DNA of 64,000 bases, from NCBI GenBank assembly GCA_034927475.1, contig JAYFPW010000002.1, forward strand, positions 193,606 to 257,605, given 5' to 3'. Under the pieces are notes generated by a model that was not told where the DNA came from, did no database searches, and was given only the letters and a program-made list of their open reading frames with translations. How positions within the stretch are numbered: position 1 is the stretch's first letter; the number at the start of each line of letters is the position of its first letter. This document shows positions 10,032 to 50,362 of the stretch, one piece after another. Made by a program: the position numbers and the translations under genes. This stretch comes from Candidatus Elulimicrobiales bacterium. GTDB taxonomy: Bacteria > Patescibacteriota > Minisyncoccia > Phycocordibacterales > UBA5272.

Positions 10032-10688
10032 TTATTTGACTTCAAAACTTCTAATCAAATCTTTAGCTGCGGTTTTAAAAGCTTCATTATCAGCTTTTTT
10101 ATTTTCTACAATAGCAAGCCATGGACTTTCATCTGTAGCTTTAACTTCTTGAATATAATATTCAGTGTTAATAGTATCATCAATTATATGTTTAACTACA
10201 ACATCTGAGTTGCCAGCAAATTTAATATCTTCAATAACAACATCTGGATTAGCTTTTTTGAATACTTCATTAATATAATCTTCTGCTGTATAACCTCTTC
10301 CCCCTTCAAAAGTTGTGTAAAGAGTCACAAAATTGTCTTTCTCAGCGTCAAAAAGTTTAAACCAATTTGATTGTGAGCCAACTCCTTGAACAGCTTCTCC
10401 ATCTTTTTTGTATAAGAAAGAAAAGTTTAAAGTATTCTCGCCTTCAAAGTTTACAGATTGTTTTCCTTCAAACTTTGCATAATCATCGCTGTTAGCAATA
10501 TCGACTAATTTTTCGCTATTACCATTCCAGATTTTCAAAGATTTACCTTCTAAACCTCTATAAACTAAAAAGCCAATTAATAAAAGTGCTAGCAGACCAA
10601 TGATCCACCAAAGTGTTTTTTTGCTTTTAAAATCAATCTTTTTCATATATTTTCTATACTTTCGTTTGTATAAAGATAATTCTAGCAT
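10032..10688 (-). CDS. hypothetical membrane-anchored protein
   Basis: Single N-terminal TM; start may be the internal MKKIDF (10646). Confidence 0.45.
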   Translation of the reverse strand: MLELSLYKRKYRKYMKKIDFKSKKTLWWIIGLLALLLIGFLVYRGLEGKSLKIWNGNSEKLVDIANSDDYAKFEGKQSVNFEGENTLNFSFLYKKDGEAVQGVGSQSNWFKLFDAEKDNFVTLYTTFEGGRGYTAEDYINEVFKKANPDVVIEDIKFAGNSDVVVKHIIDDTINTEYYIQEVKATDESPWLAIVENKKADNEAFKTAAKDLIRSFEVK

Positions 10689-10753
10689 ATACTATTTTTT
10701 TTGCACTCTTGATTTTTATTGAATTTATTTTATGCTTTTTATTGAAAAATAGC

Positions 10754-11413
10754 CTAATTTTCTATATTCAATTTATAAAATTGTTTCTCTTTTGTATTTT
10801 TTACATACACTGTTGGAAAAAGTTCTATATTTTCTTTAATGCTCATATTTTCAAATAAATTTTGAGCATTTTGAAGTAAAGTATCAAAATCTACAAATAA
10901 ATTTTCTGGTGGACTAAATTTACAAATAGTAATATGACTAGGTAAAGAGAAATCCATATTCGGATTTCCTAAATCTTTAGCTATTTCTTTGTTTAATTTT
11001 TTATCTCCTGACAAAACATAATCTTTATCAGTAAACTTTAATCTTAAAATCAAAATCCTCTCTCTACCAAAAGGAAAAGCATGCCAACTTAATTGTGACC
11101 TATCATCTGGCTTTGGAATTCTTTTTTCTTCATTAAACATTTTTAATTTGTCTAAAGAGTTTTTTAATTTTCCCTTTCCTTCTTCTACAAATTCTCTAAG
11201 TTCACTTTCTTCAATATTTCCCCCACCAATAATTGTAAAGTGAAAAGGTAATCCATCTTCTTTATTTGGAATTATAATATCTTCATATTTAGTTTTTAAT
11301 TTTTTATAAAATTCTCCTAGCTTTTCATTAGTTTTTTTATCAACTTCAAAGAGTAAATTTATTTTTACTTTTAGGTCTTCTTCTAAATTATTTTTAAGAG
11401 AAAGTTCCTCCAT
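10754..11413 (-). CDS. 2H phosphoesterase superfamily protein (LigT/ThpR-like)
   Basis: Two H-x-T-x motifs: PFHFTIIGG and PSHITICKF. Confidence 0.5.
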   Translation of the reverse strand: MEELSLKNNLEEDLKVKINLLFEVDKKTNEKLGEFYKKLKTKYEDIIIPNKEDGLPFHFTIIGGGNIEESELREFVEEGKGKLKNSLDKLKMFNEEKRIPKPDDRSQLSWHAFPFGRERILILRLKFTDKDYVLSGDKKLNKEIAKDLGNPNMDFSLPSHITICKFSPPENLFVDFDTLLQNAQNLFENMSIKENIELFPTVYVKNTKEKQFYKLNIEN

Positions 11414-11417
11414 ATTT

Positions 11418-13442
11418 TTATTTTATCAGTTTATTTTTCAAAGCTGCAATTTCATCTCGAAGTATAGCCGCTGTTTCAAAATCTAAAACTTTCACTGCTT
11501 CCGTCATCTGTTTTTCTTTTAATTTAATTAATTTATTTGGATTTTTCTCAAATAATTTTTTATCAACAGATAACTCAAACTCCACAGATTTTTTGTGTTC
11601 TCTTTTTAATTCTTCGGTTATATCTTTTATATTTTTAACAATAGTTTTCGGAGTGATATTATGTTTTTTATTATACTCAGTTTGAATTTTTCTTCTTCTT
11701 TCAGTTTCTTTAATCGCTCTTTCAAGAGAACCCGTCATTTGATCGGCATAAAGTATAACTCTTCCATCGACATTTCTAGCCGCCCTTCCAATGGTTTGAA
11801 TTAAAGAAGTCTCGCTACGCAAAAATCCTTCTTTATCAGCATCTAAAATACCAATTAAGGTAACCTCGGGAAGATCTAGCCCTTCTCTAAGAAGATTTAC
11901 TCCGACCAAACAATCAAATTCCCCTTTTCGGAGACGTGTCAAAATCTCAATTCTATCTAAAGTTTCCACATCACTATGCAAATATTCAGCTCTAATCTTT
12001 TTACCTTTTAAATAGTCAGCTAAATTTTCCGCCATTTTCTTAGTCAAAGTTGTAGCTAAAACTCTTCTTCCGGCTTTAATTTCTTTTTCAGCTTCTTTTA
12101 TAAAATCAAAAACCTGCCCTTTATATTTTCCTTTCTCCATTACTGGCTTGATTTCTAATTTTGGATCAAGAAGTCCGGTTGGACGAATGATTTGTTCTAC
12201 AACTTTACTAGAATTTTCTTTTTCATAATCAGAAGGTGTAGCTGAAACATAAATTACATCGTTTATTTTTTCTTTAAACTCATCATATTTAAGAGGTCTA
12301 TTATCTTTTGCTGAAGGAAGACGAAATCCAAAATCAACTAAAGTTTGTTTTCTAGCTTGATCACCATTATACATAGCCCGAAGTTGTGGAAGAGTTACAT
12401 GAGACTCATCTATCACTGTCAAAAAATCTCGCCCATTTTTCTTAAAATATTCCAGTAAAGTATCTGGTGCTTCTCCAACTTTTTTACCAGAAAAGTGGCG
12501 ACTATAATTTTCAATTCCCGAACAATAACCAAACTCTTTTATACTGGCTAAATCATACTGTGTTCTTCTTTTCAATCTTTCTATTTCTAAAATCTTGCCC
12601 TCTTTTTCCAATTCTTTTAGTCTGTCTTTTAATTCTGCCTGTATAGTTTTAATCGCTCGCTCTTGAGCTAATTTATCTGAAATAAAATGTTTAGCTGGAA
12701 AAATAAAATAATCTTTTACTTCTTCAAGCTCTCTCATAGAAATTGGATCAGTTACAATAAGTCTCTCTATAACCCCGTTATGTAGCTCTATTTGAAGCAT
12801 ATAAGTTTCACTCATTGGCATAATATCTATTCTATTTCCAATTGTCCTAAAACTTCCAGGAGTAAGATCAGCATTGGTTCTTTTATAATGAACTTCTACA
12901 AACATCTTCATCGATTCAACTTTAGAGATTTTTTGACCAACAAAAAGTTTTTTATTAACTTTCTCGTATTCTATTGGTGAACCTAAACCATAAATACAAG
13001 ATACAGAAGCCACTATTATCACATCATCTCGAGTTAGAAGAGATTGAGTGGAAGCGTGACGAAGTCTATCTATTTCTTCATTTATCTGAGCATCTTTTTC
13101 AATATAGGTGTCTGTAGTTGGGAGATATGCTTCTGGTTGATAATAGTCATAATAAGAAACAAAATAATGTACCGCATTATTTGGAAAAAAAGTTTTGAAT
13201 TCTTGAGCTAGTTGAGCAGCTAAAGTTTTATTGTGAGCTATAACTAAAGTTGGTTTTTGTACTTTCTCTATAACATTTGCAATAGTAAATGTTTTTCCTG
13301 TTCCAGTCGCCCCAAGTAAAGTTAGTTTAGTACTATCGTTTTTCCTCTTTTCAATTCCTTTGACCAATTCCAAAATCGCCTCCGGCTGATCTCCGGCTGG
13401 CTTAAATTTAGAAACAAGTTCAAACTTTTTAGAATTTCTCAT
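11418..13442 (-). CDS. uvrB: excinuclease ABC subunit B
   Basis: GATGTGKTFT Walker A, helicase motifs, C-terminal UVR domain. Start taken at MRNSKKF because the longer track ORF runs into the upstream terminator. Confidence 0.9.
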   Translation of the reverse strand: MRNSKKFELVSKFKPAGDQPEAILELVKGIEKRKNDSTKLTLLGATGTGKTFTIANVIEKVQKPTLVIAHNKTLAAQLAQEFKTFFPNNAVHYFVSYYDYYQPEAYLPTTDTYIEKDAQINEEIDRLRHASTQSLLTRDDVIIVASVSCIYGLGSPIEYEKVNKKLFVGQKISKVESMKMFVEVHYKRTNADLTPGSFRTIGNRIDIMPMSETYMLQIELHNGVIERLIVTDPISMRELEEVKDYFIFPAKHFISDKLAQERAIKTIQAELKDRLKELEKEGKILEIERLKRRTQYDLASIKEFGYCSGIENYSRHFSGKKVGEAPDTLLEYFKKNGRDFLTVIDESHVTLPQLRAMYNGDQARKQTLVDFGFRLPSAKDNRPLKYDEFKEKINDVIYVSATPSDYEKENSSKVVEQIIRPTGLLDPKLEIKPVMEKGKYKGQVFDFIKEAEKEIKAGRRVLATTLTKKMAENLADYLKGKKIRAEYLHSDVETLDRIEILTRLRKGEFDCLVGVNLLREGLDLPEVTLIGILDADKEGFLRSETSLIQTIGRAARNVDGRVILYADQMTGSLERAIKETERRRKIQTEYNKKHNITPKTIVKNIKDITEELKREHKKSVEFELSVDKKLFEKNPNKLIKLKEKQMTEAVKVLDFETAAILRDEIAALKNKLIK

Positions 13443-13499: not shown

Positions 13500-13772
13500 T
13501 TAATTTTCTGAAAGATTTTTGAAAGGTTCTCCCATTATTTGATCTCGGGTATATTTATGACCCTGCGCTCTTCCTGTGTTTAAAATCTCTTGAATAGCGC
13601 CAGCCAACTCTTCAGCCATACCTTTTGGAGAATCTGACCTCACCTCAATTGTAGTCCACCCACGTTTTCCTTCCTTATCTTCTACAAAGAAACGGAAACC
13701 GTTCGACAAAGCTTCACCTTTTATGGTGTATCCACTCCCGATTGTCGGAAGACTTGAAACATATCTGCTCAT
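13500..13772 (-). CDS. hypothetical 90-aa protein, GC-elevated (about 41%)
   Basis: Faint resemblance to the UPF0150/HicB N-terminal fold (SDSPKGMAEELAGAIQEIL); not secure. Confidence 0.4.
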   Translation of the reverse strand: MSRYVSSLPTIGSGYTIKGEALSNGFRFFVEDKEGKRGWTTIEVRSDSPKGMAEELAGAIQEILNTGRAQGHKYTRDQIMGEPFKNLSEN

Positions 13773-29168: not shown

Positions 29169-31010
29169 TTATCTATCTGGAGGAATTTCGTAATAGCTTA
29201 TTAAATAGTTAACCAAACTAAAAAAAGATTCTTTTAATGTTTGAGAAGCGTATTGTGCCCCCCTTGGATCTACTTGATATAAGAAAATAATATATTTAGG
29301 ATTTGTCGCTGGAAAGTATCCGAAGAAAGAGTGTAAATATTTATCTTCATAATATTTACCAGTGTTAGGATTTGAAACTTGTGCGGTACCTGTTTTTGCC
29401 GCAACTGTATAATGTGGATTTTTTGCATTCATAGCTTCATCGACAACTCTTGTAAGTATCTTACTAATCCTTTCACTTGTTGAGGTGCTTTGAAAAACAT
29501 TAATAGGTTCATCTTGAACAATAACTTTTGTTGTTCCATTGTCATAACTAATACTTTCTACTACATGCGGAGTAACAAGCTTTCCTCCATTACCAAGAAC
29601 AGCTAAAGCTCTAATAGTTTGAATCGGAGTAGTAGCAATACCTTGCCCAAACCCGGCGGTAACCAAATCTACTGCAACTTTAGAATCTAAATTGCTTACC
29701 AAACCAGAAGCTTCAGATGGTAAATCGATACCAGTATATTCTCCGAAACCAAATTTGTGAAAATACTCACTTAAATTACTTCCGCCAATTTTTTCTACTA
29801 AGAAAGCAATACCGACATTTAAAGAGTCAGAGAGAATTTTTTGAAGTGGAGTATTTGGTCCTCGGGCAACCTTGTCATAATTAGAAACTCTATAACCATT
29901 CAAGACTATAGATCCGGTGTCATTATATGTTGTTGATTCATTCACCAAACCCATATCTAAAGCGACAGCAACAGTCAAAGGTTTAATAATAGAACCCATT
30001 TCATACACGCCAGAAACCAAATCATTGTTATATACAGAGATATCTGACACTTCCCGATAGTTATTTGGATCAAAAGTCGGAATCTCTTCCATGGCCAAAA
30101 TAGATCCGTCATTAATATCCATAACAATTGCTCCAATTTTTTGAGAATTCCATCTAGCTTTAGCGTCCCCCAACAGTTTTGCCACATATCTCTGAACGTT
30201 TGCATCGATGGTTAAATTTATATCACCCTCAGAAGAAGCGTGTTGCAACATTCTGGATGTATCTTTATTTTCTATATCGCTAGAATTAAAATCTGAAAAA
30301 ACTTCAGCAAAAAAGTTTGAATTAACTATATTTTTTTTATCTAAAACGTCATTGTAATATCTCTCGAGTCCATAAAGTCCAGTTTTTTTATCTTCGGAAA
30401 AGCCTACGAAACCAAAAACTTTTGCGCCAATATCTTTTTCGAAATAAACTCTACTCTTTTTTCTACTCACAATAAGACCTTTCATTCTAAGGGAAACCAG
30501 TTCATTCGCTATTTCTTCTGGAACATTTTTTAAAAGAATTTCATAACCAGAATCCTTTTGATGCATTTTTTCTAAAAAACTATCTTTATCTAAAAAAGAA
30601 ACTATTTTTGATGAAGAGCTTGCACCTTCTACAATTTTTGAATTATAATCTTCAAAAACTTTTGAAATTTTTGAAAAATAATCATTTTCTAATTCGGAAA
30701 GATTTAAGCCTTCTTCAATCCTTTTTTCAAAAAATAAATTTATTGTCTTTGGGTCTAAAGCTAAATCATACTCATTAGACATGGCTACAGCCGGAGAAAA
30801 AGTCCCTTTTTTATTAGTAAAAAATATAGACCCTCTATCAAAATTTTCTCCCGTATCATAAAAATATTGACTCTCACCAGCTCTTTTATATTCAGCACCA
30901 TGAATTATTTGTAAATAAAAAAGTCTGGCAATAATTAAAGCAAATATAAAAAAGATAACCAAAACAAAAATATTTATTCGGTTGTGAATTAATTTATTTC
31001 TTTCTGACAT
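29169..31010 (-). CDS. ftsI: peptidoglycan D,D-transpeptidase FtsI (class B PBP)
   Basis: N-terminal TM; GSIIKP (SxxK), SDSLN (SxN), KTGTA; in dcw context. Confidence 0.85.
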   Translation of the reverse strand: MSERNKLIHNRINIFVLVIFFIFALIIARLFYLQIIHGAEYKRAGESQYFYDTGENFDRGSIFFTNKKGTFSPAVAMSNEYDLALDPKTINLFFEKRIEEGLNLSELENDYFSKISKVFEDYNSKIVEGASSSSKIVSFLDKDSFLEKMHQKDSGYEILLKNVPEEIANELVSLRMKGLIVSRKKSRVYFEKDIGAKVFGFVGFSEDKKTGLYGLERYYNDVLDKKNIVNSNFFAEVFSDFNSSDIENKDTSRMLQHASSEGDINLTIDANVQRYVAKLLGDAKARWNSQKIGAIVMDINDGSILAMEEIPTFDPNNYREVSDISVYNNDLVSGVYEMGSIIKPLTVAVALDMGLVNESTTYNDTGSIVLNGYRVSNYDKVARGPNTPLQKILSDSLNVGIAFLVEKIGGSNLSEYFHKFGFGEYTGIDLPSEASGLVSNLDSKVAVDLVTAGFGQGIATTPIQTIRALAVLGNGGKLVTPHVVESISYDNGTTKVIVQDEPINVFQSTSTSERISKILTRVVDEAMNAKNPHYTVAAKTGTAQVSNPNTGKYYEDKYLHSFFGYFPATNPKYIIFLYQVDPRGAQYASQTLKESFFSLVNYLISYYEIPPDR

Positions 31011-34511: not shown

Positions 34512-35159
34512 ATGAAGACATTTGAAATAAAAAATCCTGATTTCCAAGATTTAAAAAATCTTGTAATCTACAGCTACAAAGAAGAAGTGCAGATTCAAGC
34601 CTTAAATGGTTTACAAGAAATTTTAGAGTCCCCAAATCTTAGCGATTTGGGAAGACGGAATATTTTGAACAGTTTGATGCTTATAGGCACAAATTCCTAT
34701 TTCAACAAAAGATGTGGCTTTGAGGTGGCAGAAGCCTATTTGAAAATTTTTGAAAGCGATTCCTTATCTGAACTAGATGAGACAACAAGAAAAGCTTTAC
34801 ATATGGTGGCTAGAGAGACTGAATCCTCTGAATTTGCTTTCAAACTTATTTCTTTTATCTACAAAAAGATAGAAAAGAAATATTCTCATCCAGAAAAAGA
34901 ATATTTAATCTCTTTAGCGCTTGAAGCAAAATCTTCGGTTTCCGCTCAGGAATCAGTACGTGTTTTATCAAAAGTATATGATACAAAAGGTAAAAATTCT
35001 TTATTGGAATTAGAAGATTTTTGGAAAATTCATAACGAAAGCAAACATCCAAGAGCATCTCTTTTAGCCTTTGAGTTTTGCTTACAAAAAAACTTTTTTC
35101 AAGAAGAAAAAAATCTTTCTTATCCTCTGTATTGTAAACTTTTTCAAAAAAAGGATTAA
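34512..35159 (+). CDS. hypothetical alpha-helical protein
   Basis: ORF only; lone plus-strand gene with its own terminator. Confidence 0.45.
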   Translation: MKTFEIKNPDFQDLKNLVIYSYKEEVQIQALNGLQEILESPNLSDLGRRNILNSLMLIGTNSYFNKRCGFEVAEAYLKIFESDSLSELDETTRKALHMVARETESSEFAFKLISFIYKKIEKKYSHPEKEYLISLALEAKSSVSAQESVRVLSKVYDTKGKNSLLELEDFWKIHNESKHPRASLLAFEFCLQKNFFQEEKNLSYPLYCKLFQKKD

Positions 35160-39212: not shown

Positions 39213-40274
39213 TTACTCTATTGGAATAATATCTTTGGAATCTTTAATAATAAGCTCATGATATCTAGCTAAATCGGATAGAACAATTTCTGTACCAACA
39301 ACAACATCTGTCAAAGGACTTACAGAAATATGGGCTGCGACTTTTAGATTTTCTTCAAAGAGTTTATCTATATTTTTAATAAGAGAACCTCCACCAGTTA
39401 AAATTATTCCGTCTCTCAAAATATCTCCCAAAATTTCTGGAGGGGCTGTTTCTAAAGTTTCCCTAACCGCTTCTACAATTTGAAACAAGCTAGGAGCCAT
39501 GGCTTCACGAATATCAGATTCATTTACATTGATTTCTTTTGGAAGCCCTGAGACCAAATCTCTACCTTTAATAGAGATACTAGTCTCGATCATAGAATGA
39601 TTATCTGGCAAAGCGGACCCAATCTCCATTTTTATTTCTTCAGCAGTTTTTTCTCCAATTAAAACTTTATAATGATTTCTAATATAAGAAATTATATCTT
39701 GATTCATTTTATCACCTGCTATTTTTAAATTTTTTCTTTTTACAATTCCAGAAAGAGAAGTTATTGCGATATCTGTTGTTCCACCACCAATATCTACCAC
39801 CATAGAGCCAGTTGGAGTTTCTATAGATAAACCCATTCCTATTGCTGCAGCTGCTGCTTCTTCTAAAATATAAACCTCTCTCGCCCCAGCAGAATTTGCC
39901 GCATCTTCTACAGCTCTAATTTCAACATCTGTAACGCCGATTGGAATACCGATAACCACTCTTGGCCTTAAAAATTTTTTATTTAGATTATTAGCTTTAT
40001 TAATTAAATAAGAAAGAAATTCTTCAGTTACTTCATAATCAGAAATTACCCCATCAATAATAGGGCGGATAATTGTAATATGTTCTGGAGTTCTACCCAT
40101 CATATTTTTCGCCTCTATTCCTAGAGCTACAATTTTATTGGTTTTATTATTTATAGCTACTACAGAAGGCTCATTAATAACAATCCCTGTCCCACGCAAA
40201 GAAACTAGAGTATTTGTTGTACCTAAATCGATACCAATATCATTAGAAAATCTTGAAAAATACTTATTAAACAT
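39213..40274 (-). CDS. mreB: rod shape-determining protein MreB
   Basis: IGIDLGTTNTLV, actin-fold phosphate motifs. Confidence 0.9.
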   Translation of the reverse strand: MFNKYFSRFSNDIGIDLGTTNTLVSLRGTGIVINEPSVVAINNKTNKIVALGIEAKNMMGRTPEHITIIRPIIDGVISDYEVTEEFLSYLINKANNLNKKFLRPRVVIGIPIGVTDVEIRAVEDAANSAGAREVYILEEAAAAAIGMGLSIETPTGSMVVDIGGGTTDIAITSLSGIVKRKNLKIAGDKMNQDIISYIRNHYKVLIGEKTAEEIKMEIGSALPDNHSMIETSISIKGRDLVSGLPKEINVNESDIREAMAPSLFQIVEAVRETLETAPPEILGDILRDGIILTGGGSLIKNIDKLFEENLKVAAHISVSPLTDVVVGTEIVLSDLARYHELIIKDSKDIIPIE

Positions 40275-40382: not shown

Positions 40383-40787
40383 ATGAAAAGATTAATGTTC
40401 TTTATTTTTTTAATTAGCATTTTTTCTTTTTCTGCAAAAGCGCAGTATAGACTTCCATACCCACAAACGATTACAACTCAAGTACAAGATCTTGGGCCAT
40501 ACGGATATGGTAGCCTACAACAAGAAATAATGCAGTGCGGTCGCATCCTAGGACCCGGAAGATATCAGCAACGATTAAGATCTTCAATGTTTTTGCTAGG
40601 AAGAAGTATGCCCGTAGATAAAGTTAGGAACCTACAAATGGGACCTGCTGGATCTGTGGTGTGGGAAGATTTATACCTAAATGGTATATCGATTGGCCGG
40701 ACAAATGTCGTTGGTAGAACAGCTACCACTACTCTGTATAATCAAAATATACAGAGAGCCATGTATCCACAAAGAAGGATTTGGTAA
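40383..40787 (+). CDS. secreted R/G/Q/Y-rich small protein, unknown; GC-elevated (about 42%)
   Basis: Signal peptide MKRLMFFIFLISIFSFSAKA; no family recognised. Confidence 0.5.
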   Translation: MKRLMFFIFLISIFSFSAKAQYRLPYPQTITTQVQDLGPYGYGSLQQEIMQCGRILGPGRYQQRLRSSMFLLGRSMPVDKVRNLQMGPAGSVVWEDLYLNGISIGRTNVVGRTATTTLYNQNIQRAMYPQRRIW

Positions 40788-43646: not shown

Positions 43647-43689
43647 AAAATGATGTTAAATTATAAAAATTATTTTAACACAAAGCCGC

Positions 43690-45163: not shown

Positions 45164-46177
45164 TTATCTTTTCGCTAAAATGGATTTTTTATAAACATCG
45201 AGATGGGCAAGCGCTAAACCTGTTCCTTTCGAAACACAGAAAATAGTATCCGTTGCCAATTCTGCTTTTACCCCAGTTCTTCTTTCAACTAAAATTGGAA
45301 AATGTCTAAGAAGTGAAGATCCTCCACTCATAATAATACCGTTATCTATAATATCTCTAGATAGCTCAGGTGGAGTTTCTTGAAGTACACTTTTAATAGC
45401 TAAAATAATTTGTTTCAATTCTTTATCTATTGCTTTAGTGATTTCATTTGTTTTTATTTCTACAGTTTTTGGCAATCCAGAATTAATATCTCTACCTTTT
45501 ACTTCCATAGTCATCTCTTCTTCCAGTGGTAAAGCGGAACCAATTTCCATTTTCATTTCTTCAGCGGTTTGTTCACCGATAATTAAATTATGATTCTTTT
45601 TTACATAATCCACAATCGCTTTATCCATTTTATTTCCAGCAAATTTTACAGATTTAGAACAGACTATTCCCCCAAGAGAAATCACAGCCACATCAGTCAT
45701 ACCACCTCCAACATCGACAATAATTCTTCCGCTAGCTTCATGAATCGGAATCCCAGCACCAATAGCTGCCAAGACCGGCTCTTTCACAATATAAGCATTT
45801 TTTGCTCCAGATTTTATAGCCGCCTCAATGACAGATCTTCTTTCTGTTCCCGTAATTCCACTAGGCACTGAAACCATAATTTCCGGTTTAAAAATATTAA
45901 ATTTAGGTAAAACTTTATTTATATAATATTTAAGCATCGCTTCTGTGACTTTGTAATTTGCAATAACTCCATCCCGAATTGGTCGATAAGCAATAATCGC
46001 GTCTGGAGTTTTCCCAATCATTTCTTTAGCTTTATTTCCAATAGCCAAAATTTGTCCATCTTCTTTAGAAATAGCGACAACTGAAGGCTCGTTTAAAACG
46101 ATACCCTTTTCTGGTACATAAACTCTGGTATTTGTAGTTCCAAGATCGATGCCTAATTTTTTAATAAAAATTGCCAT
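45164..46177 (-). CDS. MreB-like actin homologue (second paralogue)
   Basis: LGIDLGTTNTRV...; start at MAIFIKKLGIDLG. Confidence 0.85.
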   Translation of the reverse strand: MAIFIKKLGIDLGTTNTRVYVPEKGIVLNEPSVVAISKEDGQILAIGNKAKEMIGKTPDAIIAYRPIRDGVIANYKVTEAMLKYYINKVLPKFNIFKPEIMVSVPSGITGTERRSVIEAAIKSGAKNAYIVKEPVLAAIGAGIPIHEASGRIIVDVGGGMTDVAVISLGGIVCSKSVKFAGNKMDKAIVDYVKKNHNLIIGEQTAEEMKMEIGSALPLEEEMTMEVKGRDINSGLPKTVEIKTNEITKAIDKELKQIILAIKSVLQETPPELSRDIIDNGIIMSGGSSLLRHFPILVERRTGVKAELATDTIFCVSKGTGLALAHLDVYKKSILAKR

Positions 46178-46297
46178 AAAAAGTAGAAATAAACTATATT
46201 TCACCATCAATTTATCACAAAAATAGGAACTTGACAAAGATTTCTTTTATTTTATCTTCTGGCATTTTAAAAACCTGAATCTTGGTATAATTGGCAT

Positions 46298-48274
46298 ATG
46301 TATATTTTAAAAATAATTCCTATCGCTAAAGGTTTACCAGAAAATTATTTTTCTTATTTTTCAAAAGAAAAACTTCCTTTGGGTTCTTTAGTGGAGATAA
46401 AAATTAAAAATAGAAAAGTTGCTGGACTAGTTTCTGAGACGAGTAAGGTAGAAAAAGAAAAAATAAATTTAAAATCTCAAAAATTTACCCTAAAGAAAAT
46501 TGAAAGGGTTATAAAAGAAAATTTTATAGATGAAAATCTCTTTCAAAGTATTGTCGAAGTTTCTATTTTATTAGGAGTAAAAGAAAGTGAAATTATAAAA
46601 AATTATATTCCTGAATTTGTATTTGAAAATATAGATTCATTTTCCGATGAAAGTTTTTTAAATAAAAAAAGTATAGAAAGATATTTTATAGAAAGTTTTG
46701 AAAAGAGACATTTAGAATATTTGAATCTTATAAAATATAATTTTAAAGAAGGAAAGACTTCTCTTATATTCTTTCCGACTATTAGCGACCTAGAAACCAC
46801 TAAAAAATATTTTGAATCTAAAAATATACAAAATATTGCAACCTTTCATTCTAGTCAAACTAAAAAAGAATTAAAAAATAATCTTGAAAAATTAAAAGAA
46901 AAAAGTCTTTTAATATTATCAACTCCTTCACTTTTACCATTTTTAATAGCTAATAAAATTAATTTAAAAACTGTAATTTTAGAAAAAGAAAATTCTTATA
47001 ACTACTTTTCCCATGCGGCTAGAAAACAAATTGACGCGAGAGAAATAATTAAAAAAATAGCTAAAGACTTGAATTTAGATTTAATTTTAGCTGGTAATAT
47101 TTTATCTTTACAAAGTTTTAAAGATTTTAAATCCTCAAAAAATCTAGAATCCGCAAATAAAAAAAGTTTTACTATTATAGATTTATCAAAAGAAAAAGAA
47201 TTAAAAAAAGAAGAGCTAGAAAAAAGAATAAAAAAGATTTCTAATAAAAAAGAAAGTAAGTACAATTCTGTCTATTTTAGTGAAGAATTAATAGAAAAGC
47301 TGGAAGAAATTAAAAAAAATAAAGATAAAGTATTTTTATATGCAAAAAGAAAAGGTCTTTATACCGAAACTATTTGCTCAGATTGTAATACTATTTTTAA
47401 ATGTAGAAATTGCGATAAACCCTATATTTTATTTAAAAAGCAAAATCAGAATGAAGTTGAAAGATTTTATATCTGTAGCAATTGTAAAGATAAAATAGAG
47501 CTTAAAAAAAGTGAAAATTTAATATGTGAAAATTGCGGAAGCTGGAAAATGAACACTCTCGGTGTAGGAACTCAAGGTATTGAAGAAAATTTAAAAGAAA
47601 TTGGTTTTAAAACTTTTCTTCTTGATTCGGAAAGTGTAAAAACTAAAAAAGAGATTAAAAATATTTTAGAGTCTTGGCAAAAAGAAAAGTCCTCTATTTT
47701 AATCGGCACCGATTTAGCTTTAAATTTTCTGAATAGAGATTTTGAAATAGATTTGGGAGCAATCATTTCTCTGGATTCACTTTTTTCAATTCCAGAAATA
47801 AATATAGATGAAAAAATATTAAATATTTGTTTAGAGTTAAAGGAAAAAATAAATAGCAGAGAAAAAATAATAATTCAAACTCGCCTCAAAGAGCAAGAAG
47901 TTTGGGATTATTTAAAAGATAATAATATTTTAGGATTTTTAAAAGACGAATTAGAAATTAGAGAAAGTTTTAATTTGCCTCCTTATGCAAATATTTTGAA
48001 ATTTAGATTAACTAAAAAAGAAATAAGAAGCAAAGAAAATATTGAAAGAATTTTAAAAAGAATATTCGACGAAGAAAAAATAAAATTTGAAAAAATAATT
48101 TGGAGAATAGAAAAAAAAACTGGTAACCATATTGGGATTTTAACCCTATCAAAAGATTTCTGGCAAATAAAAAAGGAAGGAAAAATTTTCCCTTCCAGTT
48201 TTGCGAAAAAAGTCATTACCCTTCTCCAGGATTTTCACCTGGAAATAAATCCACCCAATGTACTTCTGCCATAG
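46298..48274 (+). CDS. priA: primosomal protein N' (PriA)-like, ATPase motifs degenerate
   Basis: N-terminal 3'BD-like LPLGSLVEIKIKNRKVAGLVSE; Cys4 zinc region CSDCN...CRNC...CSNC...CENC; Walker A reduced to KEGKTS, DEEH replaced by EKEN. Confidence 0.55.
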   Translation: MYILKIIPIAKGLPENYFSYFSKEKLPLGSLVEIKIKNRKVAGLVSETSKVEKEKINLKSQKFTLKKIERVIKENFIDENLFQSIVEVSILLGVKESEIIKNYIPEFVFENIDSFSDESFLNKKSIERYFIESFEKRHLEYLNLIKYNFKEGKTSLIFFPTISDLETTKKYFESKNIQNIATFHSSQTKKELKNNLEKLKEKSLLILSTPSLLPFLIANKINLKTVILEKENSYNYFSHAARKQIDAREIIKKIAKDLNLDLILAGNILSLQSFKDFKSSKNLESANKKSFTIIDLSKEKELKKEELEKRIKKISNKKESKYNSVYFSEELIEKLEEIKKNKDKVFLYAKRKGLYTETICSDCNTIFKCRNCDKPYILFKKQNQNEVERFYICSNCKDKIELKKSENLICENCGSWKMNTLGVGTQGIEENLKEIGFKTFLLDSESVKTKKEIKNILESWQKEKSSILIGTDLALNFLNRDFEIDLGAIISLDSLFSIPEINIDEKILNICLELKEKINSREKIIIQTRLKEQEVWDYLKDNNILGFLKDELEIRESFNLPPYANILKFRLTKKEIRSKENIERILKRIFDEEKIKFEKIIWRIEKKTGNHIGILTLSKDFWQIKKEGKIFPSSFAKKVITLLQDFHLEINPPNVLLP

Positions 48275-48788
48275 AAAGAAAATCGTCCTTCTCCAAAGCT
48301 GGATGTTCTGGATCTTTCTTTTCTAAAATTTCTACAATTATACTCAGCGTAAACTGAGGTCTCAGCTTCTCAACAATAGGCGTGATTTCTTCGAAGACAC
48401 TTTTAATGAAGTTACTATTCAGAATAAGTATCGACGTTATCATTTCTAAATTTTTGGCTTTTTCAAACTCTACAAGTGAGCCAGATAAAACTTGTAAGCG
48501 CAAATAATACTCCTCACAAACTCTAAATAGCTCGTAAAACCAATTTTCATAATAAGGCACATGGTCTCCACACAAGACTTCGATGTCGTGAATAACCTTT
48601 TCATCGGAATAAGATCTTTCAGGAAAAGCTTTCGATAAATTATCGAGATATCCTAAAGTTACTATTCTTTTAGTGATGTTCAGGAGACTAGTAGCGGTTA
48701 CAATTTTTATGCCTATTTTTTCCTCTCCTAGGGACAAAAAATGGTCAGCGACTTTGTCAAACAACGAGAAATAATTTATTTTCTTCAT
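48216..48788 (-). CDS. hypothetical 190-aa protein, GC-elevated (about 38%), overlaps priA 3' end by 59 bp
   Basis: ORF only; no family recognised. Confidence 0.45.
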   Translation of the reverse strand: MKKINYFSLFDKVADHFLSLGEEKIGIKIVTATSLLNITKRIVTLGYLDNLSKAFPERSYSDEKVIHDIEVLCGDHVPYYENWFYELFRVCEEYYLRLQVLSGSLVEFEKAKNLEMITSILILNSNFIKSVFEEITPIVEKLRPQFTLSIIVEILEKKDPEHPALEKDDFLSMAEVHWVDLFPGENPGEG

Positions 48789-48915
48789 TTTTAAAACATT
48801 TAAATATTTATAAATTATAGAATTTCTGAGTAGAATATACCTAACAGAAACATCTTTGTCAAGTGTCTTTAAAAGAAGTTTATGCTAAAATATTCTTATA
48901 AAATAAGCATTATAT

Positions 48916-49491
48916 ATGGTTAAAATAGTTCAAATTGACTGGAAAAAAGAAGAGAAAACAGGAGAACTTGATGAAAAGAGTGTTTTGAGACAGGAAGCAA
49001 AAGAAGTTCTTAAAAAAGAATTTGGAACTGAAGAACTTAAAAAAATAATTGAAGATATGCAGGAAGCCATGAAGAGAGAAGACGATGGTGTAGCTATCGC
49101 CGCTCCACAAATTGGTATTGCAAAAAGAATTTTCTGTATAAAAGAAAGTGCTTATGAGATGGAGAAAAAAGAATTTAAATGGAAACCTTTAGTTTTTATA
49201 AATCCAAAAATTAAAAAAGCGAGTAAAAAAGTTGTAGAAGCAGATGAAGGATGTCTTTCTGTTCGCCCACTTTATGGGACAACTATAAGACACACAAATA
49301 TAACTTTAGAAGCACAAGATATAAATGGAGTAAAATTTACCTTTGGCGCTAGCGGACTCATTGCTCACATATTTCAACATGAATGTGATCATCTGGAAGG
49401 GATACTTTTTATCGATCATGCTGACAATATTCAAAAAGTAGATTTAGAGCAAATTAAAAAAGAATTAAAAAATGAAGAACAATCAAATTAA
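48916..49491 (+). CDS. def: peptide deformylase
   Basis: GVAIAAPQIG, EGCLS, HECDHLEG. Confidence 0.9.
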   Translation: MVKIVQIDWKKEEKTGELDEKSVLRQEAKEVLKKEFGTEELKKIIEDMQEAMKREDDGVAIAAPQIGIAKRIFCIKESAYEMEKKEFKWKPLVFINPKIKKASKKVVEADEGCLSVRPLYGTTIRHTNITLEAQDINGVKFTFGASGLIAHIFQHECDHLEGILFIDHADNIQKVDLEQIKKELKNEEQSN

Positions 49492-50362
49492 ATTTATCTT
49501 TTGGGGAACTGGACCACTTGCTGAAAGTAGTCTGTTTTCGCTTTATCAAAATGGTTTAATCCCCTCTCTGGTTATCACTTCACCTAATAAAAAAGTAGGT
49601 CGCGGATTGGAAATTCAAAAAAATATTATTGTGACTTGGTGTGAAAGTAAAAATATTAAAGTTTGGCAACCAGAATCTTTAAAAGATTTAGATATAAAAA
49701 ACTCTCCTCTTGGAGAAAATGATTTTGATTTATCTATTGTGGCAAGTTATCCAAAAATTTTAAGAGAAGAGATTTTAAACTTACCAAAATTTGGATCTTT
49801 AAATATTCACCCTTCACTTCTTCCAAAATATAGAGGTCCTTCCCCTATACAAACAGCGCTTTTAAATGGAGATACGAAAACTGGAATTACAATTATTAAA
49901 CTGGATAAAGAAATTGACCATGGGCCAATTTTAATTCAAAAAGAAATTGAAATTTTTGAAGAAGACACAAATGAAAAATTAGAAAGAAAATGTGGCGGGG
50001 AAGGAGGAGAAATACTTACCCAAATTTTAGAACCTTATTTAGAAGGAAATTTAAAGCTAGTAGAGCAAGATCATGAAAAAGCAACTTTTACTAGAAAATT
50101 TGAAAAAGCTGAAGGAAAAATAGAATTAGAAGATAGCGCCGAAGTCTTACAAAATAAATTCAAAGCCTTCCTTCCTCATATTCCAATCTTTTTTTTAATT
50201 AAACATAAAGGTAGTGAATTCAGAGTAAAAATTACTGAAATAGATTTATTTAAAAAAGAAACTGAAAATAAATTAGCTAAAGACATAATAAAAAAAGTCA
50301 TTCCAGAAGGAAAATCTGAAATGAACTTTTCTGATTTTGAAAGAGGTTATTTAAATTCTTAA
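49472..50362 (+). CDS. fmt: methionyl-tRNA formyltransferase
   Basis: NIHPSLLPKYRGPSPIQ; overlaps def by 20 nt. Confidence 0.9.
   Translation: MKNNQIKFIFWGTGPLAESSLFSLYQNGLIPSLVITSPNKKVGRGLEIQKNIIVTWCESKNIKVWQPESLKDLDIKNSPLGENDFDLSIVASYPKILREEILNLPKFGSLNIHPSLLPKYRGPSPIQTALLNGDTKTGITIIKLDKEIDHGPILIQKEIEIFEEDTNEKLERKCGGEGGEILTQILEPYLEGNLKLVEQDHEKATFTRKFEKAEGKIELEDSAEVLQNKFKAFLPHIPIFFLIKHKGSEFRVKITEIDLFKKETENKLAKDIIKKVIPEGKSEMNFSDFERGYLNS

Follow-up and report, generated by a model that had tools for sequence, protein, structure and literature searches.

In a 64,000-nucleotide stretch of DNA from a Candidatus Elulimicrobiales bacterium (contig JAYFPW010000002.1; hereafter the window), an orphan gene of 190 codons with an ATG start (48216..48788, minus strand) converges on the gene for a 658-residue PriA homologue (46298..48274, plus strand). 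Our analysis indicates that the orphan is probably a clade-restricted gene whose overlap with priA is a structural by-product of its insertion or relocation, and not a device that regulates priA. According to the coordinates of the open reading frames (ORFs), the two genes have exactly 59 nucleotides (nt) in common, 48216..48274, the last 19 codons and the stop codon of priA being overlapped; the opposite-strand 3′ overlap reported in a preliminary description of this DNA, made from the sequence alone, is therefore exact.

A protein identical to the orphan product is deposited as hypothetical protein MEA4910757.1 of Candidatus Elulimicrobiales bacterium (Patescibacteria), and the exact protein is carried by 13 assembled contigs from several samples. 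A HMMER search over 1.84 billion cluster representatives returned two matches, P0001, which is a truncated copy of the orphan itself, and P0002, a protein of 170 amino acids (aa) that is 31% identical to the orphan over residues 5-166 (E 2e-12). No family besides that of P0002 was thereby recovered from about 15 billion proteins. The identity between the orphan and P0002 at the first, second and third codon positions was 0.50, 0.57 and 0.41, respectively, with 0.26-0.31 expected by chance. Since second positions are the best conserved, selection has acted on the protein, and this codon pattern identifies the orphan as a genuine protein-coding gene.

On these grounds it is scarcely conceivable that the orphan is a spurious ORF, a stretch of higher GC that is open by chance and is either non-coding or encodes an RNA. 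The lack of any family match, the missing Shine-Dalgarno sequence and a G+C content that is higher at third (GC3) than at second (GC2) codon positions, unusual for this genome, could be read in that way. However, the full-length protein homologue with its 31% identity and its conservation in the order second, first, third position effectively refutes this reading, Rfam gave no match, and an open frame of 190 codons is very improbable at such a composition (about 1e-6 per start, by our estimate). The missing Shine-Dalgarno sequence is uninformative, since only 3 of the 54 window genes have a Shine-Dalgarno-like 4-mer.

The preliminary description found no recognizable family for the orphan, and our searches agree. 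No profile of Pfam, NCBIfam, PADLOC or PHROGs matched it (PADLOC even at E up to 1), and P0002 had no Pfam match either. A sequence search of the PDB gave a single, non-significant match (E 0.41). We rejected a structured RNA gene at this place, as Rfam returned nothing at the gathering score and chance-level matches only at E up to 10, and the tRNA and tmRNA scans found none. A housekeeping family was likewise discarded: there is no curated match, and the gene is missing from the gap between priA and def in all five relatives' loci compared (L007, L017, L018, L019 and L020). A word-index search for homologues returned nothing with the single sequence and only P0002 with a two-sequence profile. 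The P0001 entry, which represents the cluster of the orphan itself, is 83 aa long and terminates with EIGRAHV, the translation of an Illumina adapter (AGATCGGAAGAGCACACGT); it is thus an artefact of a contig end, and this may be the reason that the orphan was missed by the word-index search.

Protein and profile scans of species-representative genomes, JGI metagenomes and viral contigs gave no further members. A degenerate DNA motif for CGD-x3-YYE-x-WF, the stretch with the strongest conservation, matched once by chance, within a gene for UDP-glucose dehydrogenase, and never in viral contigs. No second copy or remnant of the family was found by tblastn in the window or in the relatives, and paralogy with two other GC3-rich orphans of the window (34512..35159 and 40383..40787) was ruled out by hhalign. 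As far as these searches reach, the family is known from two species-level Elulimicrobiales lineages only; it is coding, its homologues are confined to a narrow clade, and the orphan can be regarded as a taxonomically restricted orphan gene.

P0002 was found on more than 24 contigs of a sister Elulimicrobiales species, whose gene order is that of the window: mreC, mreB, a small ORF, an aminoacyl-tRNA synthetase gene, rseP, frr, holB, an mreB-like gene, priA, def, fmt, a peptidyl-prolyl isomerase (PPIase) gene and hpf. Flanking proteins are 71-96% identical between the window and this species, the orphan itself 31-32%. In the sister species the gene lies between rseP and frr, on the strand opposite to both (gene tables L007-L016), and is separated from priA by three genes (2.8 kb); the two sites are about 5 kb apart within the same conserved block. 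The corresponding slot of the window, a gap of 43 bp at 43647..43689, is empty according to the same gene tables and the DNA alignment.

Conversely, the gap between priA and def, which holds the orphan in the window, measures 73-115 bp and lacks it in L007 and L018 (both from the P0002 species), in L017 (which is UBA5272) and in L019. In L020, the gap is occupied by an unrelated gene of 81 aa (11987..12232, minus strand) in the same orientation as the orphan; its product showed only a weak, sub-threshold resemblance to DUF4926. The right flank of this variable slot is def, encoding peptide deformylase (48916..49491, plus strand; Pfam Pep_deformylase, E 1e-44), which is divergent from the orphan. 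Judged by 11 proteins, the window species, the L007 species and UBA5272 lie at similar distances from one another (79-82% identity). The orphan family is therefore present in two of three close lineages, at differing sites, and is absent from two outgroups. The site of the gene is not conserved, the orphan being absent at priA/def from the relatives examined and its sole homologue lying at rseP/frr. Within the species, ten contigs are listed with a def protein identical to that of the window; the orphan is present on nine of them, and the tenth stops short of its site. With no listed contig showing an empty site, the orphan appears fixed in this species.

The junctions suggest how the overlap came about. 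Orphan residues 1-172 (48273..48788, minus strand) are the part common to the homologue, and they are encoded by DNA that the relatives lack at this site. Residues 173-190 (MAEVHWVDLFPGENPGEG) and the stop codon form a read-through tail (48216..48272, minus strand) that is antisense to the conserved 3′ end of priA. The window priA matches its relatives through ...GAAATAAATCC.C..AAT (EINPxN) in the DNA alignment; the extra DNA starts within a few nt of the priA stop codon (48272..48274), and homology is regained at TGTCAAGTGTC, upstream of def. This extra DNA amounts to about 570 bp (48275..48848, with a right limit known to within about 40 nt) and is not found in the priA/def gap of L007, L017, L018 or L019. 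In the protein alignment, P0002 ends 10 residues past a shared PEH motif, at what corresponds to orphan residue 172, and the priA stop codon falls exactly at orphan residue 172/173.

P0002 has a promoter of its own and keeps its own stop codon and a strong bidirectional hairpin terminator (-18.3 kcal/mol, z -5.3) that it has in common with the convergent frr. The same antisense frame of the UBA5272 priA (L017) reads KKYFEDLFLIENPIKD and then two stop codons, with the stop at the same place as in the window, so such a tail would arise automatically once the orphan's own stop was lost at the junction. Judging from these alignments, the overlap is most likely a read-through that followed the loss of the stop codon and terminator of the orphan. 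A likeness of the tail's AEVH to EEVY in P0002 involves three residues and was judged too short to count. The right-hand junction has ACTTGACA in common, which would be compatible, as a conjecture, with an event based on microhomology.

Upstream of the orphan, about 45 nt from its ATG, the promoter scan detected a promoter-like site (48834..48862, minus strand) consisting of TTGACA, 17 nt and TATATT, with 11 of 12 consensus matches. Its -35 hexamer is the reverse complement of a TGTCAA element upstream of def, which is conserved (as TGTCAAGTG) in L017 and L019, both without the orphan. The 81-aa gene of L020 has a comparable promoter (TTGACA, 17 nt, TATCAT) that begins with the same ACTTGACAA. 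Moreover, the 13-mer ACTTGACAAAGAT is found, identical, upstream of the orphan (48852..48864, minus strand), of P0002 (L007 9938..9950) and of priA (46229..46241, plus strand), and its 10-mer core occurs twice in the window with 0.21 occurrences expected. This 13-mer could be a shared promoter or operator element or the trace of a promoter duplication.

Downstream, a terminator-like hairpin of nine pairs followed by UUUUUUAUUU (48165..48196, hairpin 48196..48175, minus strand) lies inside priA, 20 nt past the orphan stop; the scan found one such site with 0.3 expected. The earlier remark that no terminator lies between the two genes is trivially true, since none is possible between overlapping genes, and it overlooks this hairpin and T-run. 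The hairpin folds in the window, L007 and L017, and was not seen in L019 and L020; these sequences are too few for covariation support. As there is no minus-strand gene at this site in L007 and L017, the hairpin predates the orphan there and may simply have been co-opted.

Taken together, these observations are best explained if the orphan is a single-gene accessory unit that takes up differing intergenic slots of a housekeeping block whose order is conserved in other respects. In the genome of the window the unit would have settled in the priA/def slot, where it would be transcribed from the promoter whose -35 hexamer is the reverse complement of the def-upstream element. Its own stop codon and terminator, both retained by the homologue, would have been lost, and translation would extend for 18 codons through the 3′ end of priA, in antisense, to the first stop, with transcription probably ending at the hairpin and U-run already present inside priA. 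The data show directly that the gene is real, that relatives lack it at this site, where the junctions lie, that the homologue has another site and that the middle third evolves fast. The direction of movement, the use of promoter and terminator and the function of the protein are what we infer.

Three observations weigh against this explanation. No target-site duplication, terminal repeats or mobility gene were seen at either locus, the borders of both showing only short AT-rich chance repeats. The likeness between the sequences upstream of the orphan and of P0002 is confined to about 22 nt around the -35 hexamer, the rest giving a p of 0.75. Finally, the overlapped priA tail is far GC-richer than in the relatives, which simple read-through into an unaltered ancestral sequence would not predict. 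The 19 overlapped priA codons have a G+C content of 0.42 and a GC3 of 7/19, compared with 14% in the remaining priA (p 0.013) and 6-17% at the same codons of the relatives. In addition, the window priA stands out in this block as the most divergent, with 59-67% nucleotide identity versus about 77% elsewhere.

The third positions of priA are the second positions of the orphan tail, and the changes turn an antisense peptide rich in L, I and K into one rich in P, G and E, with priA residues staying the same or similar. Selection on the new tail may have operated via sites at which priA changes almost silently; the other possibility is that the end of priA arrived together with the orphan from a GC-richer donor. 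Either later selection or an imported priA end is needed, and both are possible explanations between which 19 codons cannot decide.

The preliminary description also considered an antisense regulatory arrangement. Convergent overlapping transcription would then tune priA, or def-fmt downstream, by polymerase collision or RNA duplex formation, the overlap being kept for that purpose. Some of our data are in line with it: the convergent overlap of 59 nt with no priA terminator ahead of the orphan, the fixation of the arrangement in all sampled contigs of the species, and the unusual GC3 of the overlapped priA codons. We nevertheless regard regulation of this type as very unlikely. The sole homologue is unlinked to priA and insulated by its own terminator, the priA of close relatives is without any such gene, and the overlapping tail of 18 codons lies outside the conserved, family-shared part of the protein. 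Besides, overlaps between convergent gene ends are common in compact genomes. The antisense interpretation fails, in our opinion, because neither the linkage to priA nor the overlapping part of the protein is conserved.

The orphan had also been described as clearly higher in GC than its neighbours, which holds only in part. Among the 63 window ORFs of at least 90 aa, used here as the comparison set, its GC3 of 0.330 is the highest (mean 0.193, standard deviation (sd) 0.039), and this is the true outlier. Its overall GC of 0.351 is unremarkable, lying about 1.4 sd over the ORF mean of 0.304 and being equalled by several housekeeping ORFs. With a G+C content of 30.1% for the window, 35.1% for the orphan and 23.8% for priA, the orphan stands out chiefly by contrast with priA, which exceeds all genes nearby in AT content. 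The GC3 of the homologue P0002 is 0.26. Relaxed constraint fails to account for the persistently high GC3 of the orphan, since the weakly constrained native genes (priA, holB, fmt and mreC) are the most AT-rich. In overall GC, the window ORFs are led by one of 90 aa at 13500..13772 on the minus strand (0.41, with a GC3 of 0.32), which has no Pfam match.

This composition leads to the possibility that the two species acquired their copies independently and horizontally from an unsampled mobile pool, for example their phages or plasmids. The gene would then be a conflict gene, such as an orphan immunity gene, an anti-defence gene or a defence singleton, which we consider conceivable but rather unlikely. 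We think just as cautiously of the corollary that the high GC3 and the GC-rich priA tail both stem from a higher-GC donor whose DNA recombined across the priA end and the def promoter. The differing sites in two species and the absence from three others would agree with horizontal acquisition, as would the GC3 of 0.33 against 0.19 for the genome and 0.26 for the homologue, given that weakly constrained native genes are the most AT-rich. The extension of the GC shift into the priA tail, the fast evolution of the central region and the acidic, helical nature of the protein point the same way. On the other hand, the searches brought up no family member among viral contigs or phage families, nor in another organism, no PADLOC profile matched, neither a mobility gene nor a repeat flanks the gene, and priA just upstream of the overlap is not unusually divergent. 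Furthermore, the two copies have diverged at synonymous sites to the same extent as the genes that flank them, which is the expectation under vertical descent.

Within identical amino acids, the third-position identity between the orphan and P0002 is 0.63, and that of the flanking genes is 0.56-0.71. Such similar values speak for an old gene of the clade that has moved to another site, and on this measure the orphan and P0002 may date back to the split of the species. At a rate about thirty-fold above that of frr, an identity of 31% would match the expectation for vertical descent. Synonymous sites are near saturation, and independent acquisition is a possible alternative. The recent acquisition proposed in the preliminary description agrees with presence and absence, as no related genome examined has the gene here and the homologue lies elsewhere, and with a GC3 that runs against the AT-ward drift. 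However, a synonymous divergence as large as that of the flanks makes the relocation of an old gene specific to the clade just as plausible as a new import.

Between two strains, the alleles of P0002 show 23 differences in 513 nt, and an identity of 99.6-100% is found for most of the genes on either side. A divergent patch between the same strains is also present in frr, next to P0002, which indicates a recombination mosaic. The mosaic tract, seen between L007 and L021 at 10205..10899, covers the middle of P0002 and parts of frr and reaches a divergence of up to 14% over 154 nt in strains that are otherwise near-identical; it is evidence of homologous recombination among these uncultured bacteria. 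Within the mosaic, frr has 11 synonymous changes and 1 non-synonymous change (dN/dS 0.02), and P0002 has 6.3 and 16.7, respectively (dN/dS 0.64). All 14 amino-acid changes between the P0002 alleles fall in residues 69-138, which evolve close to neutrality (pN/pS 0.76), residues 1-68 and 141-170 being invariant. The middle third is also the least conserved between the orphan and P0002. The two ends of the protein are thus under constraint, and its centre evolves freely or diversely.

The orphan product, of about 20 kDa, is acidic (pI 4.9; 4.6 for P0002), has no predicted signal peptide or membrane segment and is predicted to be all-helical (AlphaFold2 secondary structure, at low confidence). 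Our guess at its function, a weak one, is a dispensable or conflict-type, non-enzymatic, cytoplasmic acidic helical protein that binds a partner, with conserved ends and a variable central interaction surface. By analogy, and equally as a weak guess, such a variable surface may be of the kind seen in immunity and anti-defence proteins. The label of a defence or toxin-like singleton found no support, given that there is no PADLOC or Pfam match, no partner gene at either locus and no catalytic motif.

Several more specific candidates were considered and rejected. An anti-phage defence system was dismissed because PADLOC, with E allowed up to 1, gave no profile match. A toxin-antitoxin module, which would need two adjacent co-oriented small genes, was not supported: the orphan is flanked by priA and def in the window and the homologue by rseP and frr, with no partner ORF and no Pfam match. 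An insertion sequence, a miniature inverted-repeat transposable element or another transposable element would require convincing terminal repeats or a target duplication, or a transposase domain, none of which we saw. Lastly, a free-standing homing endonuclease was discarded, as neither family member has a domain of the GIY-YIG, HNH or LAGLIDADG type in Pfam or PHROG.

Comparison with known systems places the orphan among the taxonomically restricted orphan genes of reduced genomes, which are likewise confined to a narrow clade, patchy in relatives, fast-evolving, short and domainless. Unlike these, one family is found here at two intergenic sites of one conserved block, which suggests movement or repeated capture and not simple gain or loss at a single site. 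The tail resembles gene ends overprinted after stop-codon loss in being antisense to an older conserved gene, in lying outside the conserved protein and in having its second positions at the older gene's third positions; here, however, only 18 codons are involved, and the recoding of the priA tail is suggestive, resting on 19 codons. Like phage morons and free-standing homing-endonuclease genes, the orphan is a single gene of deviant composition with its own promoter (and, in the homologue, a terminator), located between conserved genes and opposite to at least one neighbour. It differs from them in residing in a bacterial housekeeping block, with no nuclease motif, no PHROG or Pfam match and no relative in viral collections. 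With small orphan immunity or antitoxin-like proteins it has in common a size of about 20 kDa, acidity, predicted helicity, a variable centre and a sporadic distribution. This likeness is one of general properties only, with no toxin gene nearby at either locus and no profile match. In all, although the family itself is new and very small, the orphan is nothing out of the ordinary: it is a gene restricted to one clade, and its overlap with priA can be explained simply, on structural grounds.

A further idea, which we find improbable, is that the priA/def gap is a pre-wired expression slot and that the orphan tail was recoded through silent sites of priA, a form of overprinting. A -35 element reading both ways (TTGTCAA/TTGACAA) would be available on one side and the antisense hairpin and U-run in the priA end on the other. 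Small genes of unrelated origin that inserted into the slot, namely the orphan of 190 aa in the window and the gene of 81 aa in L020, would be expressed immediately. After capture, the tail would have shifted toward Pro, Gly and Glu by changes that are synonymous or conservative in priA.

The other partner in the overlap is itself a divergent PriA. It matches the NCBIfam priA models at E 1e-46 to 1e-49, under the curated cut-offs, and solved PriA structures in the PDB at E 1e-11 to 1e-12, and is 55-72% identical to the PriA of the relatives. The window PriA seems to be without ATPase motifs, reading SFEKRH at the position of the Walker A motif (GSGKT) of E. coli PriA and EKEN at that of Walker B (DEEH). 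The sequence EKENSYNYFSH is also found in the L020 PriA, and from these motifs the clade may conserve a helicase-dead PriA. A perfect TATAAT stands 6 nt ahead of the priA ATG (46286..46300, plus strand), so the priA mRNA may be leaderless.

The same conserved block contains other small genes of uneven distribution. At the place of a helical ORF of 215 aa (34512..35159, plus strand; GC3 0.26, no Pfam family), the sister species carries an unrelated NUDIX gene of 129 aa (L007 1307..1696), which makes this another variable slot. The orphan at 40383..40787 (plus strand; GC3 0.30) encodes a basic protein of 134 aa (pI 10.6) that matches no Pfam family and begins with a signal-peptide-like N-terminus. 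Its identity with the counterpart in the L007 species is 50%, compared with about 90% for the neighbouring genes, and UBA5272 (L017) lacks it. An ORF of 81 aa without a family lies between fmt and the PPIase gene in L007 (16909..17154, plus strand) and L018 (3370..3612); in the window these genes abut at 50362/50363. The window also has two MreB paralogues, at 39213..40274 and 45164..46237 (both on the minus strand), which share about 44% identity. For the second, the listed ORF is probably too long, as its L007 homologue begins 20 codons later. A tRNA-Leu(caa) called by ARAGORN at 30604..30700 (minus strand), within an ORF of 613 aa (29169..31010), is unsupported by Rfam and probably a false positive.

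The orphan belongs to a protein family that the databases did not contain before. With no testable function indicated, its importance beyond this case is limited; only the possible pre-wired slot and the possible recoding at the end of priA seem to us to deserve further attention. It is a small and clean example of a family found in different gaps of one block, of an overlap probably produced by stop-codon loss and, possibly, of the recoding of an older gene. If the slot and the recoding are real, the tail would offer a small and datable instance of overprinting, with recoding at the silent sites of the older gene. If our explanation is correct, the overlap and the odd composition reveal no new defence or regulatory system; rather, they would record an accessory gene settling into a very compact genome.

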